Positions 1,461 through 63,294 of a stretch of 64,000 nt of DNA are shown piece by piece. Origin of the DNA: Candidatus Falkowbacteria bacterium. Its GTDB lineage: Bacteria > Patescibacteriota > Patescibacteriia > CAIXNZ01. Made by a program: the position numbers and the translations under genes. Within the stretch, counting starts at the first letter, position 1. Each line of letters starts with the position of its first letter. Location: assembly GCA_963774955.1 (NCBI GenBank), contig CAVZGV010000003.1:128771-192770 (forward strand), read 5' to 3'. The notes under the pieces were generated by a model. The model did not search any database and was not told the origin of the DNA. It saw only the letters and a program-made list of their open reading frames with translations.

Positions 1461-3260
1461 ATGTTAGACTTAACGCGCTGGAAAAATAAGAAGAAAGTCC
1501 CGGGCAGTAAAAGCTTGGAACCCAGAATTAAGGTATTAGCCATTTGTTTGGTTCTTTTTGGCTTATTAATCATTGGTAAGTTGTTTGATTTTCAGGTTTT
1601 AAAGTTTGAATTTTACGCAGCTTTGGCCTCTGACCAACATGAAGTGTATAAGAAGCTTTTTCCGGCCCGAGGTTCAATCTATGTCAAAGATAAGGGTAGC
1701 TCGATCTTGGCAGCTGAAGAAAATTTGTATCCTTTAAGTATTAATAAAGATTATAATTTGGTTTATGGCCAGCCTAAATTTTTAGAACAAAGCCCTGAGG
1801 ATGTGGCAACTTTATTGGCGCCTATTTTAGAGCCTGACCAGATAAAACGCGAGGAATTAATCAAGGAATTAGTGGCTAAATTATCTAAAACAGATGATCC
1901 TTATGAACCGTTAGTTCATAAAGTCGAGGATAGCCAGGCTGAATTGATTAATAATCTCAAACTTAAGGGGATTAAAACTTCCAAGGAAACATTCAGATAT
2001 TATCCGGAAAATAATATTGGCGCCAATATTTTAGGCTATGTCGGCTTTGCTGATGACGGTACCAGAAAAGGTTATTATGGAATTGAAGGCTATTTTAATA
2101 AAGAATTGGCCGGCAGACAGGGTGAAATTCAGTCAGAAAAAGATATTACTGGGACCTTGATATCAGTGGGTGAAAGAAAATTTGTTCAGGCCAAAGACGG
2201 AGATGATATTGTTTTGACTATTGATAAAACTGTGCAATTTGAAGTCTGCAGTCAGTTGAATCAGCACGCTAAAGTGGTGGAAGCTGACAGTGCGGCAGCT
2301 ATAGTCATGAATCCGCAAACTGGTGAAATTATTGCCATGTGTTCCTGGCCTGATTTTGACCCCAATGATTATGGTAAAGTCACTAACCCTGCTGATTTTA
2401 AGAATTTGGCGGTTTATGATGCCTATGAGCCCGGTTCGATTTTTAAACCTATAACCATGGCAGCTGCACTGGATTTGGGCAAGATAACACCCGAAACAAC
2501 CTTTATTGATGAAGGTGAAGTAAAAATTGATGAATTTACTATCCGCAATTCTGATAAACGGGCTCACGGTAAAATGACCATGACTCAAGTTTTGGAAAAT
2601 TCTTTAAACTTGGGTACTATTTTCGCTATGCGCCAGATGGATCATAAAGATTTTCGCAGATACGTAGAAAAATTCGGGTTTGGCAAAGAAACCGGTATCG
2701 AACTGCTTGAAAGTGAAGGAAATATTGCCGCCATGCAAAAAAAGAGTGAGATCTTTTTTGCTACCGCTTCATTTGGCCAGGGGATAACGGCTACGCCCCT
2801 GCAGATGGTTCAGGCCTTTTCAGCCATTGCTAATGGTGGTAAACTGGTGAAACCTTATATTGTTGAAGAGATCAGGAAAACCGAAGGTATTGTCATTAAA
2901 ACAGAAAGACCCGAGCCGATTCAGATAATATCTTCAAGGACTGCGACGCTCCTAACCGGTATGCTGGTTTCTGTTATCAAAAATGGTCAGGGTAAAAAGG
3001 CGGCAGTGCCCGGGTATTATATGGCCGGCAAATCCGGTACGGCTCAAATAGCCAATTATGAAGCCGGCGGTTATTATGCCAATAAAACCAATCATTCATT
3101 TATCGGCTTTGCCCCGATTCGTGATCCGGCTTTTGTCATGATTATCAAATTTGAAAATCCTAAAAAAGGAAGCTTTGCTGAAAGTACCACTATGCCTGTT
3201 TTTTCACGTATCTCCAAATTTTTGTTGGATTATTATCATGTGGTACCGGATGATATCTAA
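1461..3260 (+). CDS. ftsI: class B penicillin-binding protein (FtsI/PBP2-type transpeptidase)
   Basis: N-terminal TM anchor and transpeptidase motifs SIFKP (SxxK), SxN region and KSGT (GKSGTAQ). Lies next to murF in dcw-like order. PBP2 versus PBP3 cannot be resolved by eye. Confidence 0.8.
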   Translation: MLDLTRWKNKKKVPGSKSLEPRIKVLAICLVLFGLLIIGKLFDFQVLKFEFYAALASDQHEVYKKLFPARGSIYVKDKGSSILAAEENLYPLSINKDYNLVYGQPKFLEQSPEDVATLLAPILEPDQIKREELIKELVAKLSKTDDPYEPLVHKVEDSQAELINNLKLKGIKTSKETFRYYPENNIGANILGYVGFADDGTRKGYYGIEGYFNKELAGRQGEIQSEKDITGTLISVGERKFVQAKDGDDIVLTIDKTVQFEVCSQLNQHAKVVEADSAAAIVMNPQTGEIIAMCSWPDFDPNDYGKVTNPADFKNLAVYDAYEPGSIFKPITMAAALDLGKITPETTFIDEGEVKIDEFTIRNSDKRAHGKMTMTQVLENSLNLGTIFAMRQMDHKDFRRYVEKFGFGKETGIELLESEGNIAAMQKKSEIFFATASFGQGITATPLQMVQAFSAIANGGKLVKPYIVEEIRKTEGIVIKTERPEPIQIISSRTATLLTGMLVSVIKNGQGKKAAVPGYYMAGKSGTAQIANYEAGGYYANKTNHSFIGFAPIRDPAFVMIIKFENPKKGSFAESTTMPVFSRISKFLLDYYHVVPDDI

Positions 3261-3339
3261 CCAGCTTTGAGCATTGAGCTTTGTGTTTAGAGCTTTTGCC
3301 CTAAGCCCATAGCCCTAAGCTTTAAGCCATTATTTAAAT

Positions 3340-4725
3340 ATGAATCAACGAAATATGTCCGCCAAAGGCGGATCCGCCTCTGGCGGAAAAAAAATACTTC
3401 AAAACATCTTGCGCGATCTAGCCGGAAAAATCTTGAGTTATTTTGCGCGGAAAATTTTGCAAAAATATAAACCGGAAATTGTGGGCATTACCGGCAGTGT
3501 CGGCAAAACTTCAGCTAAAGAGGCGATTTATGCTGTTTTGTCGTCTCAATTTAATGTGCGTCAGAATATTAAAAGCTATAATAATGAAATCGGCACGCCG
3601 TTGACTATAATTGGAGAAGAAACAGGCGGCCGGTCAATTTTCAAATGGCTTAAGGTTTTTTATACTGTTTTTAAATTATTGATAATTAAGGCTAATAATT
3701 ATCCACGGATTTTGGTCCTGGAAATGGGTGCTGATAAAGTCGGTGATATTGAATATCTGGTTAAATTAGCCCCGCCTAAAATCGGGGTTTTAACTGCTAT
3801 AACCGAATCCCATTTGCATATGTTTAAGGACCTAAAGGGAGTTTTAAAGGAAAAGGAAAAGATTGTTACAACCTTACCAAAGGAAGCTGCTGCCTTGCTC
3901 AACGCCGATGATGAATATGTTATGAGTGTGAAAAATAAAATTAAAGCCCGCGTTTTGACTTATGGTTTTGGCGACGAGTCTAATATCAAAGCCGGCGAGA
4001 TTTTATTTACCGGCTTGGAACAGGATTTTTGCGAGACTCAGTATGACTGGGAATGTAAAACCTGGGGTACAAATTTTAAAGTAACTTATAATGGCTCATC
4101 CGTGCCGGTATTTTTACCGCATTGTTTCGGCAAACAGCAGGCTTATGCGGCTTTGGCCGGAATTGCGGCTGGCTTGGTTTATAAAATGAATCTGGTTGAT
4201 ATTGCCGATGCTTTAAAGGAATTTCAGCCGCCTAAAGGCAGAATGAATTTGATTGCCGGGATTAAATATACCCTGATTGTAGATGATACCTATAATTCAT
4301 CTCCGGTGGCGGCTAAGGCAGCGTTGGAAATGTTACAGTCAATAAATTTACCGGCTGGTAAAAGAAAAATCGCTGTTTTGGGAGATATGCTGGAATTAGG
4401 TGACCGCTCAGAATCAGCTCATAGGGAGATAGGATTTAAAGTAGTTGAGTATGGACTTGATAATCTGGTGGCAGTTGGCAAAGAAGCGAAATTAATAGCC
4501 GAGGCAGCCAAAGAAGCCGGCATGCCGGCGGAAAATGTTGAATATTTTGAGGACCGAGATAAGGCCGGTATTTATGTCCAGAATTTGATTGAGAAAGGCG
4601 ATTTGATTTTGGTCAAAGGTTCTCAAGGTATAAGAATGGAAAAAATTGTTCTGGAAATTATGGCAGAGCCTTTAAAGGCAGGGGAGTTGTTGGTCAGGCA
4701 GACAGGGGAATGGCTTAATAAATAA
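3340..4725 (+). CDS. murF: UDP-N-acetylmuramoyl-tripeptide--D-alanyl-D-alanine ligase (MurF), short N-terminus
   Basis: Mur-ligase P-loop ITGSVGKTS, DDTYNSSP (E. coli DDSYNANV) and C-terminal GDMLELG. The first 14 codons are encoded by the double-hairpin repeat cassette. Confidence 0.85.
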   Translation: MNQRNMSAKGGSASGGKKILQNILRDLAGKILSYFARKILQKYKPEIVGITGSVGKTSAKEAIYAVLSSQFNVRQNIKSYNNEIGTPLTIIGEETGGRSIFKWLKVFYTVFKLLIIKANNYPRILVLEMGADKVGDIEYLVKLAPPKIGVLTAITESHLHMFKDLKGVLKEKEKIVTTLPKEAAALLNADDEYVMSVKNKIKARVLTYGFGDESNIKAGEILFTGLEQDFCETQYDWECKTWGTNFKVTYNGSSVPVFLPHCFGKQQAYAALAGIAAGLVYKMNLVDIADALKEFQPPKGRMNLIAGIKYTLIVDDTYNSSPVAAKAALEMLQSINLPAGKRKIAVLGDMLELGDRSESAHREIGFKVVEYGLDNLVAVGKEAKLIAEAAKEAGMPAENVEYFEDRDKAGIYVQNLIEKGDLILVKGSQGIRMEKIVLEIMAEPLKAGELLVRQTGEWLNK

Positions 4726-4940
4726 GTCTAAAGTTTAAAGTCTAAAGTCTGAAGTTTGGAAAATTATTTTAAGGCTTGAAATTTTTTTATTTTAGTGTAA
4801 GATATAACAATATTCAATAACCAATAACTCAATAATCAAACAATAATTAATACCGAATAAGAAAATGTTTTTTTAAATTTTGTTATTTGGTATTTAGATT
4901 TGTTTGGAGCTTGAGATTTGGTTATTGGTTATTAAAGCTA

Positions 4941-5013
4941 GGGCCTCTTCGTCTAGTGGCTAGGACGCATGGTTCTCATCCATGTAACAGGGGTTCGATT
5001 CCCCTAGGGGCTA
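4941..5013 (+). tRNA. tRNA-Glu (anticodon CUC)
   Basis: Hand-folded cloverleaf: acceptor GGCCTCT/AGGGGCT (2 G-U pairs), D arm GTC-TAGTGGCTAG-GAC, anticodon arm CATGG-TTCTCAT-CCATG, T arm AGGGG-TTCGATT-CCCCT. Aligns to E. coli tRNA-Glu. Confidence 0.75.
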
Positions 5014-5027
5014 TTATAAAAAGTTCT

Positions 5028-5094
5028 TCCGCCATAGGCGGACCCGCCTCTGGCGGGCATCCTGGTAATAGGGGTTCGATTCCCCTTGGCGGTA
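5028..5094 (+). ncRNA. degenerate tRNA-like element (tRNA 3'-half copy fused to a double GC hairpin)
   Basis: T arm identical to tRNA-Glu (AGGGGTTCGATTCCCCT). Acceptor-like pairing TCCGCCA/TGGCGGT. Only about 67 nt, with the D and anticodon arms replaced by two 6-bp hairpins (TCCGCC-ATA-GGCGGA, CCCGCC-TCT-GGCGGG). Confidence 0.3.
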
Positions 5095-5146
5095 TTAGCA
5101 ATATTTACTCTCAGACTCAAGGGTCTTTTTTTGTTTATTTGTAGCT

Positions 5147-5181
5147 TGACAAATGTGGTTTTTTTTGTTAAGTTTAGTTGA
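5147..5181 (+). promoter_or_regulatory. candidate sigma70-like promoter for the island operon (TTGACA-17-TAAGTT)
   Basis: TTGACA at 5147-5152 and a weak -10 after 17 nt. Followed by the nested hairpin at 5240-5270 and RBS AAGGGAGG. Confidence 0.3.
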
Positions 5182-5290
5182 TTCCCTGAAGAAGGGAAGA
5201 ATTTTGTTTTTTGATAAAAAAATAAGGATTTCAAAGACAACCCACCTACGCTCCTTTGGAGCTATGGTGGGTAAAAGGGAGGACAAGAAA

Positions 5291-19617: not shown

Positions 19618-19815
19618 CAGTTGCATTATACTGTAAGTAAAGTTAGAATCAGGATTTAAGGGGAATAAATGCAGCTATAATAACCAATAATCAAATTTCA
19701 AATATCAAATAAATATCAAATCCCAAATTACAAAATTTAAAATGTTTGTATATTGGTGCTTGTAATTTGTAATTTATTTGGAGCTTGTGATTTGGAACTT
19801 GTGATTTGAATAAAT

Positions 19816-25373: not shown

Positions 25374-25682
25374 ATGCGTGAATACAATTTCTATGTTTAC
25401 ATCATGGCCAGTGATAGCGGAACATTGTATGTCGGCGTGACTAATAGCCTGGAACGGCGTGTCTGGGAACATAAAAACGGTATTCTGCCCGGCTTTACAA
25501 AGCGTTATTCCTGTCATAAACTGATTTATTTTGAACAATACGATTATATAGAAGATGCCATTGCCCGTGAAAAACAATTAAAACGATGGCGCCGGGAAAA
25601 GAAACAAAATTTAATCAAGACTTTGAATCCTTCATGGAAAGATTTAAGCGCAGATTGGTATAAACAAATTAATTTTAAATAA
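25374..25682 (+). CDS. stand-alone GIY-YIG (URI-domain) nuclease-family protein
   Basis: YVYIM..SGTLYVGVTNSLERRVWEHK and REKQLKRWRREKK. Confidence 0.8.
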   Translation: MREYNFYVYIMASDSGTLYVGVTNSLERRVWEHKNGILPGFTKRYSCHKLIYFEQYDYIEDAIAREKQLKRWRREKKQNLIKTLNPSWKDLSADWYKQINFK

Positions 25683-49215: not shown

Positions 49216-49404
49216 ATGTCTGAGGTAATTTCTATGGCAGATGAATTAATTTTGAATTCAGCCATGTTATTGGCAGATGAAGATGATGAAGAAGCAGAAG
49301 AAGCGGAAGAAGTTGAAGAAGATGATGATGCTGCTGATGATGATGAAGAAGCTGATGATGATGAAGTTGATGAATCTGACGAAGAAGAAGAAGATAACGA
49401 ATAA
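49216..49404 (+). CDS. 62-aa hyper-acidic small protein (40-residue D/E tail)
   Basis: Own AT-rich upstream region and a strong terminator at 49412-49440 (AAAAAGGGCGCTAAGTACGCCCTTTTTT). Non-periodic codon usage argues against a simple tandem repeat. Confidence 0.4.
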   Translation: MSEVISMADELILNSAMLLADEDDEEAEEAEEVEEDDDAADDDEEADDDEVDESDEEEEDNE

Positions 49405-49537
49405 ATATAAAAAGGGCGCTAAGTACGCCCTTTTTTGTTTTTTTAAACTAAATCCTGTGGGGTTTCCAAATCGCCATATATTTGCTAAACTGGCTAATAT
49501 AGATAAGTTGAATTACTTAGTAAAATTTACTAAAATT

Positions 49538-50140
49538 ATGAAAAAATATTATCTTATCGGCAGTGTTTTATTGGGAACCGTTATATTAACGGTAGTAATT
49601 ATTATGGGGGTATTAACCTGGCAAAAGTCCAGTCATGACCAAGTCTTGTCCGAAATAAGAGATCAGGTTGTGGCGGAAGAGAAGATTAGCCCTGCTAATA
49701 ATGAGTACTTCAAAGTAAAACGCAGCGAGACCAATGATCTTTATTATTACGCGGCTGACGGCAAAAGATATGTTTTTCCGACCATTGATGTTTATCGTTC
49801 CTGGTATGGAAATTTTATGATCGAAAATTTGAAAATTGCCGATTTGCAGACCCTCTACCAAACTCCCTTGGGCGGGAATGTGACTTTCCGTCCCGGCAGT
49901 TTAATGAAAACACCATCCATACCTTCAATTTATTTGGTTATAAAAAACGGATTGATCAGGCCTTTTGCCAGCCAGCAGCTTGTAGCTGAAATTTACGGCA
50001 GTGATTGGAGTAAAAAGGTCTATGAATTGCCGGAATATTATTTCAGCCAGTATCAGCTGGGAGAACCGATTAGTACCCTCAAAGACGTCCCGGCGATATC
50101 TTCTGAGATAAATATTAATCAGGATAAGGGGTTGGAGTAA
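49538..50140 (+). CDS. membrane-anchored hypothetical protein
   Basis: Start at MKKYYLIGSVLLGTVILTVV. The track ORF 49277..50140 has a K/M-rich N-terminus that is the alternative frame of the acidic gene. Confidence 0.45.
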   Translation: MKKYYLIGSVLLGTVILTVVIIMGVLTWQKSSHDQVLSEIRDQVVAEEKISPANNEYFKVKRSETNDLYYYAADGKRYVFPTIDVYRSWYGNFMIENLKIADLQTLYQTPLGGNVTFRPGSLMKTPSIPSIYLVIKNGLIRPFASQQLVAEIYGSDWSKKVYELPEYYFSQYQLGEPISTLKDVPAISSEININQDKGLE

Positions 50141-50142
50141 TT

Positions 50143-51345
50143 ATGGTTCAATCAGATATGTCCCGCAAAGCGGGATCCGCCGTTGGCGGAAAAAAAATAT
50201 TTTTAGTCTTAGTTAATATTGCCTTAATTTGCGTTATAGTAATTACGGTTTTTTATTTGTTTTCCAGGCGCACTGAGCTTTTTGCCCAGAGCAGTTTGTC
50301 GTTCGGCAACAAAATTTTAAATGTTAATATACCAGGTCAAATTAAGGAAATAAAAAGAGCCAAGCCGGTGGAGAGGGAAGTTAAGGCCATATATTTAACC
50401 TCTTACTCAGCCAGTGTTCCGGACAGAGTTGATAATTACATTGGACTGATCAAGAAAAGCCAAATTAATGCCGTGGTTATAGATATCAAAGATTATTCCG
50501 GACAGATTGCTTATGACAGCAAGGTTCCGTTGGTTGAAGAATTGCAGACCGACCGCAATCTGATTAAGGATTTATCAGGGGTTATTAAAAAATTTCACGA
50601 TAATGATATTTATGTCATTGCCAGGCAGACAGTCTTTCAGGATCCGGAACTTTCAGGTAAAAAGCCCGAATGGGCGGTTAAAAATTCCGCGACCGGCGGA
50701 GTTTGGAAAGATAATAAGGGACTGGGCTGGTTAGATGCTTCAAAACAGGAAGTCTGGCAATATAATATTGATATTGCCAGAGAAGCAATCAGGCTGGGTT
50801 TTGATGAAATTAATTTTGATTATATCCGTTTTCCTTCCGACGGTCCGATGAAACTGATGCAGTTTAGTAATATGAATGGACGAACTAAAGCTGAAGTCAT
50901 GACGGACTTTTTTAAATATTTATATGAAAATTTAAAATCAGAACCGGCCTATATATCCGGGGATTTATTCGGCTTTACGACTGAACGTACCGATGATATG
51001 AATATCGGTCAGCAGATTGAAGACGCGGCTTTATATTTTGATTATGTCTGTCCCATGGTTTATCCGTCACATTATCCCAGCGGTTATCTGAATCTGAAAA
51101 ATCCAGCGGCCGAACCTTACAAAGTAGTAAAATTCGCTTTAACCAAAGGCGAGGAAAGTTTAGCCTTAGTGCCAGATGTCCGCGCCAAAATTAGGCCGTG
51201 GCTGCAGTCTTTTGATATGGGAGCCGTATATACCTCGGCTATGATTGAAGATCAGATTCGGGCAGGCCAAGAAGCCGGCAGTTACGGCTATTTGCTCTGG
51301 AATGCCAGGAATGTCTATAAATATCTGCCTGCGGTAAAAAAGTGA
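50143..51345 (+). CDS. membrane-anchored putative glycoside-hydrolase-like TIM-barrel protein (GHL10/DUF4015-like)
   Basis: TM helix plus KAIYLTSYSAS...INAVVIDIKD...FDEINFDYIRFP. The N-terminal 19 codons come from the double-hairpin cassette. Confidence 0.4.
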   Translation: MVQSDMSRKAGSAVGGKKIFLVLVNIALICVIVITVFYLFSRRTELFAQSSLSFGNKILNVNIPGQIKEIKRAKPVEREVKAIYLTSYSASVPDRVDNYIGLIKKSQINAVVIDIKDYSGQIAYDSKVPLVEELQTDRNLIKDLSGVIKKFHDNDIYVIARQTVFQDPELSGKKPEWAVKNSATGGVWKDNKGLGWLDASKQEVWQYNIDIAREAIRLGFDEINFDYIRFPSDGPMKLMQFSNMNGRTKAEVMTDFFKYLYENLKSEPAYISGDLFGFTTERTDDMNIGQQIEDAALYFDYVCPMVYPSHYPSGYLNLKNPAAEPYKVVKFALTKGEESLALVPDVRAKIRPWLQSFDMGAVYTSAMIEDQIRAGQEAGSYGYLLWNARNVYKYLPAVKK

Positions 51346-52417: not shown

Positions 52418-54799
52418 ATGAAAAAAACAAAAATCATCTTGAGTCTTATCATTCTGGTTTCATCTGTCGCTATCGGCGGTTTGAGTTCAATGGTTTCAGC
52501 GCAAACCGTTCCCTCAATCATTGATATTAACGACGGCACAAATTATTCCGGAAATTCCAAAACATTATATGCAACTACTTATATTGAAGCCACTTGCTCT
52601 TTAGCCTATAGTAAAAATTCAGATACCAGTAATGGTACTACGGTTTTGGGCGGTGTGGTCCAGACTCCGACTGCGACCAATGACGGTAAATATTATTATG
52701 CCTTCAATTTAACAGGATTGGATGGGGTTTCTATTTATTATTACAAAGTAATGTGCACGGCTAATGGTCAAACTGATGTTAGCACCATTAGAACCTTAAC
52801 TGTTCAAGGATCAACCCAGATAATTATTGATATTAACGACGGCATAAGTTATTCCGGATATAGTAAAACAATATATGCAACTTCTTATGGCCAGGCCACT
52901 TGTTCTTTGGCTTACGGCAAGAATTCAGATACCAGTAATGGCACTACAGTTTTAGGCGGTGTTGTTCAGACTCCTGCAGTGGGCAATGACCAGAAATATT
53001 ACTATGCATTTAATTTAACAGGTTTGGACGGTGTTTCAGTTTATTATTACAAAATAATGTGTACTGCCAGCGGACAAAGTGATATAAGTACTATTAAAAT
53101 TCTGAGCCCAATAATTACGAGTAAAGTCTTTAATGGTGACGGGACATATGATATTAATGCCGGTGACAGGGTAAAATTAAATAATGGAGCAACTATTGAA
53201 CCTATTTTTTATACTTCGGGAGATTTTTTAAATGTAAAATTTGATGTTTATGACAGCAGTTTAATTAAAATAGGTACGAGCGATTTTACCAGGACAGCTT
53301 GGTCAGCATTGAGTTATGCTGTCGGCAGCTATAAAATGCAATTTAAAGTTAATTCAGCCGGCTCTTCATCAGGCAAATATTTTGGCAATATCACCTTTAC
53401 TAGCGTTAGCGCGAATGCTTTTGAAATTACAAGCGTCAGGGTTGATAAATTAGATGCAGTGGGTAATCCCGCTGAAGACGTGCGCAGTTTTAGTATCACT
53501 GCTAATCAGCAATTTACTAATTTGCAAATTACGCTCTATGAATTGCCAAGTACGACCTCTTATTTTACTTTAAATGTACCAGGAACTGCTTCTTCTGTTT
53601 ATGTCAGCCCAGGGAATTGGCCAAAAAAATTAAATCCCAATAAAACATATAAATATGTGATCAGCGCTAAGAGCACTCAAACGGCTGAAACTGATACTTA
53701 TGAGAGTACTTTTACCTCCAGTAATTTTACTTCAGAGGGCGATACCATTACTCAAATTACTATTTTGACTCCTAACGGAGCAGAAAATTTTGTTCAGGGT
53801 AATCTTAATCGCATCAGCTGGTCAGGTGGAACGGAAAAGGTTCAAATTGGCGTATTAAAAGGTGCGTCCGTGACAGCTGACGCAACCGGCAATTTATTGG
53901 GCTGGATTAATACTAATTTAACACCTAATAGCAGCACTTATTGGGATGGCAAAAACATTTGCGATTTAATAGGTACTACCTGCTGGGATCTGGCTGCCGG
54001 AAGTTATAAAATAGTAGGCGTATCCAAAGATAAGGACGGAAATTATTTATTAAATTATCCCGGCAATCTGGATATTAGCGATAACGCTTTTAATATTATT
54101 GCCCCTCCGGCGTCAGTTCCTATTACCTCTGGACAGGAAAATATTTATATTCAAAGGATTAAAGAATTGGAATACCGCATTTCTGAACTGGAAAATCAGG
54201 TTACTGCTTTGGCCCAAAAAACTTTTACCTATAGAAATCAAAATTTGATTGGTCGTACTGCCGGCAGAATTCTTTTACAGGTTGAAACTAACGGGCAGGC
54301 CTGGTATTTGGATCCTGTAACTGCAAAAAGATATTATTTGAAAGACGGTAATTCCGCCTATATAGCCCTAAACGCTTTTGGTTTGGGGGTCACGAATAAT
54401 GACTTGGCCAAAATCCCTATTGGCGTAGAATCAAGATTTCAATTGAATGACGGTGACGGCGACGGGTTGGCTGATAATTTGGAAAGAGCGATTGGAACTA
54501 ATCCTGGGGATTCAGATTCTGATGATGACGGTTTTTCTGATGGTGAAGAGGTTAAAAGCGGTCATAATCCCTTAGGCGCTGGTAATTTAAATTTGGATTA
54601 TAACTTAGCCACTAAATTAAAAGGGAAAATTTTATTGCAGGTACAATCTAAGGGTGAGGCTTGGTATGTGAGTCCGGTAGACAGTAGAAGATATTATTTG
54701 GGTGACGGTGAATCCGCTTATCAGATCATGAGATTTTTAAGTCTGGGTATTACCAATGATAATTTGAATGAAATTCCGGTTGGCAGTTTAAATTATTAA
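52418..54799 (+). CDS. secreted cell-surface protein with internal repeats
   Basis: Signal/TM sequence, 2 x ~100-aa repeats (IIDINDG..YSG.SKT.YAT.Y..ATCSLAY.KNSDTSNGTTVLGGVVQTP), an Asp-rich TSP3-like DGDGDGLADN...DSDSDDDGFSDGEE segment, and 2 x C-terminal repeats (GKILLQV...EAWY..PV...RYYL.DG.SAY). Confidence 0.6.
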   Translation: MKKTKIILSLIILVSSVAIGGLSSMVSAQTVPSIIDINDGTNYSGNSKTLYATTYIEATCSLAYSKNSDTSNGTTVLGGVVQTPTATNDGKYYYAFNLTGLDGVSIYYYKVMCTANGQTDVSTIRTLTVQGSTQIIIDINDGISYSGYSKTIYATSYGQATCSLAYGKNSDTSNGTTVLGGVVQTPAVGNDQKYYYAFNLTGLDGVSVYYYKIMCTASGQSDISTIKILSPIITSKVFNGDGTYDINAGDRVKLNNGATIEPIFYTSGDFLNVKFDVYDSSLIKIGTSDFTRTAWSALSYAVGSYKMQFKVNSAGSSSGKYFGNITFTSVSANAFEITSVRVDKLDAVGNPAEDVRSFSITANQQFTNLQITLYELPSTTSYFTLNVPGTASSVYVSPGNWPKKLNPNKTYKYVISAKSTQTAETDTYESTFTSSNFTSEGDTITQITILTPNGAENFVQGNLNRISWSGGTEKVQIGVLKGASVTADATGNLLGWINTNLTPNSSTYWDGKNICDLIGTTCWDLAAGSYKIVGVSKDKDGNYLLNYPGNLDISDNAFNIIAPPASVPITSGQENIYIQRIKELEYRISELENQVTALAQKTFTYRNQNLIGRTAGRILLQVETNGQAWYLDPVTAKRYYLKDGNSAYIALNAFGLGVTNNDLAKIPIGVESRFQLNDGDGDGLADNLERAIGTNPGDSDSDDDGFSDGEEVKSGHNPLGAGNLNLDYNLATKLKGKILLQVQSKGEAWYVSPVDSRRYYLGDGESAYQIMRFLSLGITNDNLNEIPVGSLNY

Positions 54800-60286: not shown

Positions 60287-60433
60287 TTGCTACCTCCATT
60301 GTAATGATTTTTTAGTATATCGTAAGTTGAAAAAAAAGTCAATAATTGATATTGTTACATATATACAAATCAGCTACGAATTTACAAATATAGTAATTTT
60401 TTTAAAAAATTCGTAGATCTGTATCTTATCCGT

Positions 60434-60463
60434 TCCGCGTAGCGGAATGCCGCTCCGCGGCGT
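60434..60463 (+). promoter_or_regulatory. double GC hairpin immediately upstream of mutL (same family as at 3358, 5028 and 50161)
   Basis: TTCCGC-GTA-GCGGAA followed by GCCGC-TCC-GCGGC. Confidence 0.45.
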
Positions 60464-63155: not shown

Positions 63156-63294
63156 ATAACAAATATTAAATAACAAATCACAAATAAGCATCAAATCTCA
63201 AATTTTAAATTTTAAACAGTTTGAAGTTTTGGGGTTTGATTATTGAAATTTATTTGGAGCTTGTAATTTGTGATTTGGTGCTTTTATGTAAATT

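Follow-up and report, generated by a model that had tools for sequence, protein, structure and literature searches.

A GC-rich double hairpin shared by two gene starts in a Candidatus Falkowbacteria bacterium is probably a copy of a dispersed, tolerated mini-palindrome

Introduction

Rickettsia palindromic elements (RPEs), described by Ogata et al. in 2000, are reportedly selfish DNA inserted in frame in protein-coding genes. They measure about 100–150 bp and are confined to Rickettsia. Here, we analyzed a 64,000-nt stretch of the genome of a Candidatus Falkowbacteria bacterium (assembly GCA_963774955.1, contig CAVZGV010000003.1, positions 128,771 to 192,770), hereafter called the window, in which a GC-rich motif of two adjacent hairpins occurs at the starts of two genes, murF and a DUF4015 gene. 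All coordinates are positions within the window, the 30-nt double-hairpin core is referred to as DH, and L- and P-numbers designate loci and proteins of relatives. We consider it probable that the shared motif is a copy of a dispersed, selfish and probably mobile GC-rich mini-palindrome that is translated and tolerated; on our best reading, it is neither a dedicated 5′ module nor a mis-annotated untranslated region (UTR).

Among known elements, DH comes nearest to the RPEs and to mitochondrial hairpin and GC-cluster elements. It resembles the RPEs in being a dispersed hairpin-forming palindrome without coding capacity of its own, found in frame in unrelated, often essential genes as well as in non-coding DNA, and in being tolerated as an extra surface or terminal peptide. 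It differs from them in its size (30 nt, or 45 nt with a leader), its unrelated sequence, its presence in many phyla according to record titles, its Parcubacteria-like host and the use of a single reading frame by nearly all coding copies.

The mitochondrial double-hairpin elements, repetitive hairpin-forming elements and yeast GC clusters are short GC-rich palindromes in AT-rich genomes, often made of two adjacent hairpins; their sites are intergenic, within RNA genes or, occasionally, in frame in protein genes (var1), they are retained in transcripts and have no known transposase, and GC palindromes flank tRNA genes in Neurospora mitochondria (PMC2800124, PMC8811140). DH likewise consists of two GC-rich hairpins in AT-rich DNA, with conserved stems and variable loops. 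The mitochondrial elements are, however, organellar and lineage-specific, whereas DH is bacterial, keeps nearly the same 30 nt across phyla and overlaps open reading frames (ORFs) in about 74% of copies from AT-rich loci.

In bacteria, repetitive extragenic palindromes (REPs) and bacterial interspersed mosaic elements (BIMEs) are mobilized by RAYT (Y1 HUH) transposases, and REPs are extragenic, with a GTAG or CGTC head (PMC3733652). DH has in common with REP/BIME a GC-rich imperfect palindrome of 20–40 nt that is often clustered or nested and sometimes composite with other hairpins (for DH, L008 and L003). Unlike REPs, it is mostly intragenic (18 of 70 copies in AT-rich loci are intergenic), lies between flanks of the form TT(T)/../(A)AA (..TATG/ at the window sites; slashes mark junctions) and has no GTAG or CGTC head. 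No RAYT-like ORF recurs within 1.5 kb of 120 listed DH copies. Compared with miniature transposable elements with inverted repeats (MITEs), DH lacks a target-site duplication at its empty/occupied pairs, and no transposase recurs within 1.5 kb of its copies; as for MITE-type termini, DH is self-complementary and bounds a GIY-YIG/tRNA segment on both sides at one locus (L123) and on one side at other GIY-YIG loci. Unlike riboswitches, leaders and RNA thermometers, DH has no Rfam match and no consistent gene-start position or gene class. A literature search by topic and by sequence found no description of the DH element.

Results

The starts of murF and the DUF4015 gene share a double hairpin

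The ORF at 3340 encodes MurF (461 aa, with Mur ligase domains), and that at 50143 a membrane-anchored DUF4015 putative glycoside hydrolase. The two gene starts, sites A and B, are composed as follows.

3340..3342, + strand: murF native start codon, aligned with the ATG of insert-free orthologs (L121: TAAATATG / AAAAAAATAC)
3343..3357, + strand: site A 15-nt leader AATCAACGAAATATG, codons N-Q-R-N-M; L122, L123 and L134 have it, L121 and L125 lack it
3358..3387, no strand: site A double hairpin TCCGCC-AAA-GGCGGA-TCCGCC-TCT-GGCGGA (SAKGGSASGG); 58.6 bits with the covariance model, on either strand
3388..3396, + strand: native murF codons AAA AAA ATA (K-K-I), the host part of the A8 run (L121 reads ATG AAA AAA ATA CTC; orthologs, MKKILQ)
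50143..50145, + strand: DUF4015 native start codon, with GGAG 5 nt upstream; insert-free orthologs share the GGAGTAA.TTATG context
50146..50160, + strand: site B 15-nt leader GTTCAATCAGATATG, codons V-Q-S-D-M; absent from L131, L132 and L133
50161..50190, no strand: site B double hairpin TCCCGC-AAA-GCGGGA-TCCGCC-GTT-GGCGGA (SRKAGSAVGG); 49.9 bits with the covariance model
50191..50199, + strand: native DUF4015 codons AAA AAA ATA (K-K-I), opening the membrane anchor, as in insert-free orthologs

A first reading of this DNA, made from the sequence only, had proposed that the two genes share a hairpin-encoded N-terminal cassette, and this sharing is real. A repeat finder aligned 3335-3399 with 50138-50202 as a 65-nt pair with 52 identical positions (80%), the pattern GGATCCGCCNNTGGCGGAAAAAA had no match in 100 dinucleotide shuffles, and a sequence-independent scan found four adjacent GC-rich hairpin pairs in the window where 0.03 were expected. 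A covariance model (R1) built from 37 distinct DH copies recognized exactly three copies in the window, at 50–59 bits, the next-best match scoring 10 bits. With a GC content of 0.70–0.77 against 0.40 for the window, the double hairpin is nearly palindromic and reads the same on both strands. Its RNA fold at site A reaches −22.4 kcal/mol (z = −4.6); at site B, z = −2.1.

The observation that the differences between the sites are paired and preserve the stem also held: the first stem is TCCCGC/GCGGGA at site B and TCCGCC/GGCGGA at site A, two positions being changed on both arms, so that site B is a diverged copy with a compensated first stem. The boundaries of the motif had to be redrawn. The five codons ahead of ATGTCC, taken at first to be unrelated, match at 10 of 15 nt (the double hairpins match at 24 of 30) and belong to the inserted unit, while seven of the eight A's of the A-run, counted at first as part of the motif, are native Lys-Lys-Ile codons of the host genes.

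The shared unit is a 45-nt insertion behind a native start codon

MurF was compared with its best 120 homologs. Close homologs are nearly all 438 aa long and start MKKILQNILR..., and four proteins carry the insert, namely P0001 (the window protein), P0002, P0006 and P0009, which read M[..]SAKGGSA(S/F)GG-KKILQ with upstream residues NQQN M. At the DNA level, TAAATATG and AAAAAAATAC adjoin without interruption in L121, and the window, L122, L123 and L134 have 45 additional nt, made up of a 15-nt leader AATCAAC(A/G)AAATATG and the 30-nt double hairpin; the latter is an exact 10-codon insertion relative to orthologs starting MKKILQ. For DUF4015, the closest orthologs (P0122-P0124) start MKKLFLVLVN and are free of the insert, and the window protein and P0140 carry it. 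P0140, a more distant protein, opens MNQQNMSAKGGSASGGKKIGL.. and has the canonical MNQQNMSAKGGSASGGKK, the same peptide as MurF P0002. Since insert-free orthologs start M-KK-I/L, the insert corresponds to the 45-nt unit after the native ATG. This comparison thus shows that both genes received an in-frame unit, of a length divisible by three, directly after the native ATG and ahead of the native Lys-Lys codons.

Presence of the unit is patchy among close relatives. In a neighbour-joining tree of MurF, the four carriers fall in one 10-member clade, interleaved with six non-carriers; carrier P0002 is sister to non-carrier P0003, and carrier P0006 to non-carrier P0007. The two DUF4015 carriers fall in different clades, and GCA_026395755.1 has the insert in murF and none in DUF4015. 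Leaders nearly identical to that of site A also precede hairpins in the DUF4015 gene of L130 and in a third, unrelated gene of L131, which starts ATG/AATCAACAATTTATG+DH/AAAAA. L134 has an extra DH just past the murF stop codon, a position at which the window, L121 and L123 have none. The unit is thus gained or lost independently in murF and in DUF4015. An assembly artefact was ruled out: copies are in frame, their loops vary and the assemblies come from independent sources, the exact insert-bearing DUF4015 protein being recorded on contigs from separate assemblies. A metagenome scan for leader plus DH matched a single contig, that of P0006.

The proposal of a mobile 5′ cassette is therefore retained in part. 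Insertion is supported, as is independent, patchy presence at identical sites in orthologs; relatives with murF but no cassette exist (L121, L125), and a search of other gene starts in relatives uncovered the leader and DH in the third gene of L131. The parts that fell are the supply of the A-run, which is host sequence, and of the start codon, which pre-existed, the unit adding only a second in-frame ATG. Nor is the 30-nt core specific to 5′ ends (of 70 copies from AT-rich loci, 44% are ORF-internal, 26% lie between genes and 21% fall within the first 30 codons), and some copies sit in tRNA gene fragments.

In addition, the window MurF has a private 8-codon insertion relative to all orthologs, DLAGKILS, between R25 and Y34 (3415-3438), which resembles a small local duplication of the ..GKIL.. 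segment.

Start codons and the encoded peptide

The sequence-only reading had offered, as its other explanation, that the annotated starts are wrong, with the hairpins in the 5′-UTR and translation beginning downstream. The public annotation does differ on murF, since P0001 (456 aa) is placed at the second ATG, 3355, and no obvious Shine-Dalgarno sequence precedes 3340. However, insert-free orthologs begin exactly at the junction (MKKILQ.. and MKKLFLVLV...), and GGAG lies 5 nt before the first ATG of DUF4015. The first in-frame start past the hairpins would be a TTG 7 codons on in murF, and in DUF4015 it would lie 22 codons on, which would remove the membrane anchor. Furthermore, coding DH copies are biased toward frame 0 (36/41, p = 7e-13), which points to translation. 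We regard downstream starts as very improbable.

Still less credible, in our opinion, is that the shared peptide is a functional N-terminal tag (for sorting, degradation or modification), or that one gene acquired it from the other by direct duplication or gene conversion. The identical peptide MNQQNMSAKGGSASGGKK on MurF P0002 and DUF4015 P0140 would agree with this, but the two proteins differ in location (cytoplasmic for MurF, membrane-anchored for DUF4015), many unrelated proteins contain the same 10 residues internally and the same DNA occurs in non-coding places. Apart from the generic ATG/AAAAAAATA, similarity between the two window genes does not extend past the insert boundaries, and their copies differ at 11 of 45 nt and are thus not recent copies of each other.

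DH is a dispersed family with paired stems

Species-representative genomes were scanned with a degenerate pattern that fits all three window copies. DH was found at at least 120 loci, on bacterial contigs of up to 1.6 Mb, and the possibility that the cassette is absent from all other loci was thereby refuted, as it was by the third window copy at 5028-5057. By record titles, the loci belong to many phyla, including many Patescibacteria classes, Omnitrophota, Planctomycetota, Kiritimatiellia, Lentisphaerae, Verrucomicrobiota, Ignavibacteriota and others. A few GC-rich matches are probably chance Gly/Ser/Ala-coding sequence. Viral contigs hold DH at only three loci, so phages are no obvious vehicle.

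The core consensus, TCCGCC-N3-GGCGGA-YCCGCC-N3-GGCGGR, describes two adjacent hairpins of 15 nt, each with a 6-bp stem and a 3-nt loop. Stem cells are paired in 99.8% of cases, while the loops vary (AAA, AGA, GGA, GAA, CAA / TTT, TCT, TCC, TTC, TTG). Positions 16 and 30 covary (T-A 89, C-G 21, other 12; Fisher p = 1e-15), and a perfect palindrome over all 30 nt, with GGATCC at its centre, is seen in 13 of 122 copies. Among copies that only the covariance model recognized, further compensated stems occur (CCCTCC/GGAGGG, CCCGCT/AGCGGG, TCCCCC/GGGGGA); a few are decayed and some nested. In AT-rich loci, 84% of copies have T at −2 and A at +2, and the palindrome therefore effectively extends to TT(T)/../(A)AA. 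Rfam gave no DH match at gathering score or at E <= 10 over 3250-5200, and a protein search with the cassette peptide as a tandem triple gave no match at E <= 10. A terminator was ruled out: on either strand, the hairpins come after U-runs and before A-runs.

DH is also found nested in the loop or stem of another DH, or clustered within about 100 nt (L036 7415-7470, L061 7580-7647, L003 4480-4586), and in L008/L073 it lies within a composite hairpin repeat of about 185 nt without a transposase.

Position statistics were computed on 70 copies from AT-rich loci, against a random control. About 74% of these copies overlap ORFs. The first 30 codons hold 21% of copies, compared with 9% in the control (p = 0.001), intergenic DNA holds 26% (18/70) compared with 12% (p = 0.003), and ORF interiors hold 44% compared with 64%. 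The gene-start location seen in the window is thus a moderately favoured special case, not a defining property of DH. Among copies within ORFs of at least 150 aa, 36 of 41 are read in frame 0, which encodes S-A-x-G-G-S-A-x-G-G (p = 7e-13).

Nothing we found demonstrates the role as a translation or regulatory module that had been suggested for the cassette, and a selected cis-regulatory unit at gene 5′ ends, tuning for instance initiation or mRNA stability, is in our judgement unlikely. Such a function would fit the stable hairpins (z = −4.6 and −2.1) with their compensated stems and the enrichment in the first 30 codons; the leader moreover leaves the first ATG accessible, and conservation is higher in the 45-nt unit than in the murF codons beside it, with 1 nt differing between the window and L123 although the MurF proteins are only 76% identical. 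On the other hand, 44% of copies are ORF-internal and 26% intergenic, the host genes have no function in common, the unit is missing from the closest orthologs (P0003, 86% identity; P0122, 84%), Rfam has no match, and the frame-0 bias points to a constraint on the peptide, not on the position relative to the start codon.

Internal copies were found in PheT, which has two, in AspS, at two sites in two genomes, in Mfd, again with two, and in UvrA, UvrB, RecG, CysS and DnaK; HsdR and an S41 peptidase are further host proteins. In an alignment with the T. thermophilus AspRS structure, a clear gap in a loop stands opposite the decapeptide; for UvrB, the alignment with Protein Data Bank structures shows that the region around the insert is variable in length.

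The AspS proteins of L057 and L017, of the candidate phyla radiation (CPR) type, are without the insertion domain of about 120 residues found in bacterial AspRS, residues 269-272 mapping to 296-414 of 1efw. Copies at L043 4924 and L054 4990, from Saccharibacteria and Doudnabacteria genomes, occupy the same site, ..GYF[DH]NPD.., in what is apparently the same class I aminoacyl-tRNA synthetase; the L054 copy has the compensated stem TCCCCC/GGGGGA.

The third copy is the remnant of a GIY-YIG insertion into a tRNA-Glu gene

The third window copy, copy C, is non-coding and lies in a tRNA context. The features concerned, together with the window's GIY-YIG ORF, are as follows.

4942..5013, + strand: intact tRNA-Glu(CTC), called by ARAGORN and Rfam; in L123 it is carried inside the GIY-YIG insertion
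5023..5027, + strand: GTTCT, the last 5′-side bases of a tRNA-Glu anticodon loop, abutting copy C; the junction GGTTCT[DH]CATCCT occurs twice in L123
5028..5057, no strand: copy C, non-coding DH TCCGCC-ATA-GGCGGA-CCCGCC-TCT-GGCGGG; 27/30 identical to site A, 52.6 bits with the covariance model
5058..5094, + strand: 3′ half of a second tRNA-Glu that has been split, comprising CAT of the anticodon loop, the stem, the T-arm, the acceptor TGGCGGT and discriminator A; aligns with L123 4531-4563, intact in L134
25374..25682, + strand: stand-alone GIY-YIG-only ORF, 102 aa (PF01541, E = 8e-15), with no tRNA or DH nearby

Relatives display both states of this site. In L134 it is empty, the second tRNA-Glu being intact (GCCGCCA..GGTTCTCATCC..TGGCGGTA, L134 2852-2923). 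In L123/L124 it is occupied, and the tRNA-Glu is split after anticodon position 35 (L123 4060-4563) by the insertion [DH]-CATCCTGTC-(84-aa GIY-YIG ORF)-(intact tRNA-Glu)-GGTTCT-[DH]. The GIY-YIG ORF of L123 lies at 4142-4396. In L123, GGTTCT[DH]CATCCT stands at both sides, and the insertion brings its own replacement tRNA-Glu. As expected of a GIY-YIG homing cassette, there is a GIY-YIG ORF at the insertion and both empty and occupied alleles exist in relatives. Copy 5028-5057 is thus a remnant comprising only the right end of a GIY-YIG/tRNA-Glu insertion into the resident tRNA-Glu gene. That 5028-5094 forms a functional tRNA was ruled out, since neither ARAGORN nor Rfam calls it and the D-arm and 5′ half are missing.

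The same layout, in which a tRNA fragment ending in a loop is followed by DH, 10–30 nt, a GIY-YIG ORF and an intact tRNA, recurs in L123/L124, L042, L036 and L068, and at a distance of 234 nt in L003; it spans different phyla. When the 1,327 ORFs within 1.5 kb of DH were clustered, GIY-YIG was the sole recurrent non-housekeeping family, present at 7 of 120 loci among the matches listed. The GIY-YIG ORFs adjoining DH all match PF01541 only and are limited to the catalytic domain (84–103 aa). The association between GIY-YIG and DH is real, but covers a minority of copies.

In T4, the free-standing GIY-YIG homing endonuclease gene segB lies in a tRNA gene cluster (PMC2330249). It is the nearest analogue of the tRNA-linked copies, including 5028-5057, which are alike in having a small GIY-YIG ORF in or beside tRNA genes, with an empty site in L134 and an occupied one in L123. 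Seg proteins, in contrast, are phage-encoded, have a DNA-binding domain and are without junction hairpins, whereas here the ORFs are restricted to the catalytic domain, a tRNA loop is split and DH stands at the junction.

In an alternative account, small GIY-YIG nuclease elements homing into tRNA genes would have DH as their self-complementary ends or leave it behind as a solo remnant; solo copies within coding sequence would be non-autonomous derivatives, mobilized in trans by that nuclease. The recurrence of the layout across phyla speaks for it, as do the two GGTTCT[DH]CATCCT junctions of L123 facing an intact site in L134, and the standing of the PF01541-only ORFs as the sole recurrent non-housekeeping family within 1.5 kb of DH. 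It is weakened by the small number of associated loci (7/120 among the matches listed), by the presence of DH at a single junction in L042 and L036 and by the window GIY-YIG ORF (25374-25682), which has no DH nearby. Also counting against it, catalytic-domain-only GIY-YIG proteins have, to our knowledge, no obvious sequence-specific DNA-binding module. We hold this account to be rather doubtful; it refines the mechanism of the dispersed mini-palindrome that we favor rather than excluding it.

DH-bearing partial tRNA copies occur in several phyla. The repeat sits either in their anticodon loop or, following GCTCA(G/A)TT, in their D-loop, and they adjoin a GIY-YIG-only ORF, an intact copy of the same tRNA, or both (L042 7270-7700; L036 7378-7840; L068 225-690; L111 2390-2663; L092 ~2900-3060; L032 ~4045-4100). 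In L111, two DH-bearing tRNA fragments are in tandem. The split tRNA-Glu has the acceptor stem GCCGCCA/TGGCGGT (L123 4060-4066 / 4557-4563), and CCA-encoding tRNA-Ser genes (L042, L036) end in ..TCCGCCA. The resemblance of these ends to the hairpin arm TCCGCC(A) could be a coincidence or a clue to the origin of the repeat.

Proposed mechanism and points that weigh against it

We propose that, in this Parcubacteria lineage, a 45-nt derivative of DH, consisting of an A-rich leader ending in ATG and the double hairpin, would have inserted independently in murF and DUF4015 at ..TATG/AAAAA.. junctions. Both lengths, 45 and 30 nt, are divisible by three and the element lies in frame 0, so that it would be translated as the flexible peptide (N/V)Q(R/S)(N/D)M-SA.GGSA.GG. 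A Gly/Ser/Ala peptide may be tolerated at termini and in loops and would be harmless at the extreme N-terminus. The frame bias would then reflect purifying selection, the other frames (PPxADPPxA, RxxRIRxxR) presumably being removed; one non-zero frame would also be ruled out by the stop codon that the T/AA junction would generate.

Persistence of the leader is probably explained by the distance of about 18 nt that it puts between start codon and hairpins, which would keep initiation accessible. Around the first ATG of site A, the mean predicted probability of being unpaired, 0.64 in the reconstructed ancestor, is 0.60 with the leader in place and would fall to 0.39 if DH stood immediately after the ATG; this effect is weaker at site B. 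Movement may depend on a nuclease acting in trans, for which the sole candidate is the small GIY-YIG family beside DH in tRNA-gene insertions, and its role in mobilization is suggested by that adjacency. In our view, DH is more likely a selfish element that moves, or is at least gained again and again and lost precisely, than a functional one.

A number of points weigh against this explanation. Beyond 1–2-nt ambiguity, no target-site duplication was found at murF, DUF4015 or the murF 3′ spacer, the sole left-flank repetition at empty/occupied pairs being the ..TATG that ends the leader, and no transposition intermediate was seen. Clustering of the 1,327 ORFs within 1.5 kb of DH revealed no recurrent transposase, integrase or reverse transcriptase, and only 7 of 120 loci, among the matches listed, have a GIY-YIG ORF within that distance. 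The MurF pattern could represent one old gain with several precise losses in place of repeated gains, and the slight decay of the L134 murF copy is consistent with vertical descent. A selected function could instead account for the enrichment of roughly 2.4-fold in the first 30 codons, for the conserved and compensated stems and for the near-identity of the core across phyla, and compensated stems may also arise without selection, by palindrome-templated correction. The taxon names of DH loci are those on deposited metagenome-assembled genome records, taken as deposited, and translation of the insert is suggested by frame statistics.

As a tentative extension, somewhat improbable as a whole, DH may constitute an undescribed class of very small mobile element. 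A mover enzyme, most plausibly the small GIY-YIG nucleases, would keep it near-invariant across phyla and insert it without target duplication at T-rich/A-rich junctions and hairpin loops; the element would survive in essential genes only in the SAxGGSAxGG frame, and the 45-nt Parcubacteria derivative would target ..TATG/AAAAA.. with its own spacer and ATG.

If DH is indeed a dispersed and mobile mini-palindrome, it would be a bacterial counterpart of the RPEs and of mitochondrial GC clusters and double hairpins, much smaller and common to several phyla. It would account for recurrent SAxGGSAxGG/PAxGG.. insertions and for start-codon disagreements in annotations of CPR, Omnitrophota and Planctomycetes-Verrucomicrobia-Chlamydiae (PVC) genomes, caution against taking SAxGGSAxGG peptides as functional motifs and offer presence/absence markers for strain-level evolution. 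Conservation of 30 nt across phyla without a nearby transposase would point to an unknown mechanism of mobilization or repair, for which the architecture of tRNA loop and GIY-YIG ORF is a concrete, testable candidate.

Other repeats and features in the window

A different pair of adjacent hairpins, TTCCGC-GTA-GCGGAA / TGCCGC-TCC-GCGGCG, lies at 60433-60462; it precedes the ATG (60478) of a MutL-like ORF by 15 nt. By the covariance model, this pair falls outside the DH family. An AT-rich dispersed repeat of about 49 nt (..ATTTATTTGGAGCTTGTGATTTGG..) occurs at 4879-4927, 19753-19801 and 63229-63277, one copy being just upstream of the tRNA-Glu gene, and short tandem repeats of the GTCTAAAGT type follow the murF stop codon (4726-4760). 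The ORF at 49277-50140 opens with a long Asp/Glu-rich low-complexity tract (49264-49410), and the ORF at 52418-54799 contains internal tandem repeats of about 306 nt (52516-54721).

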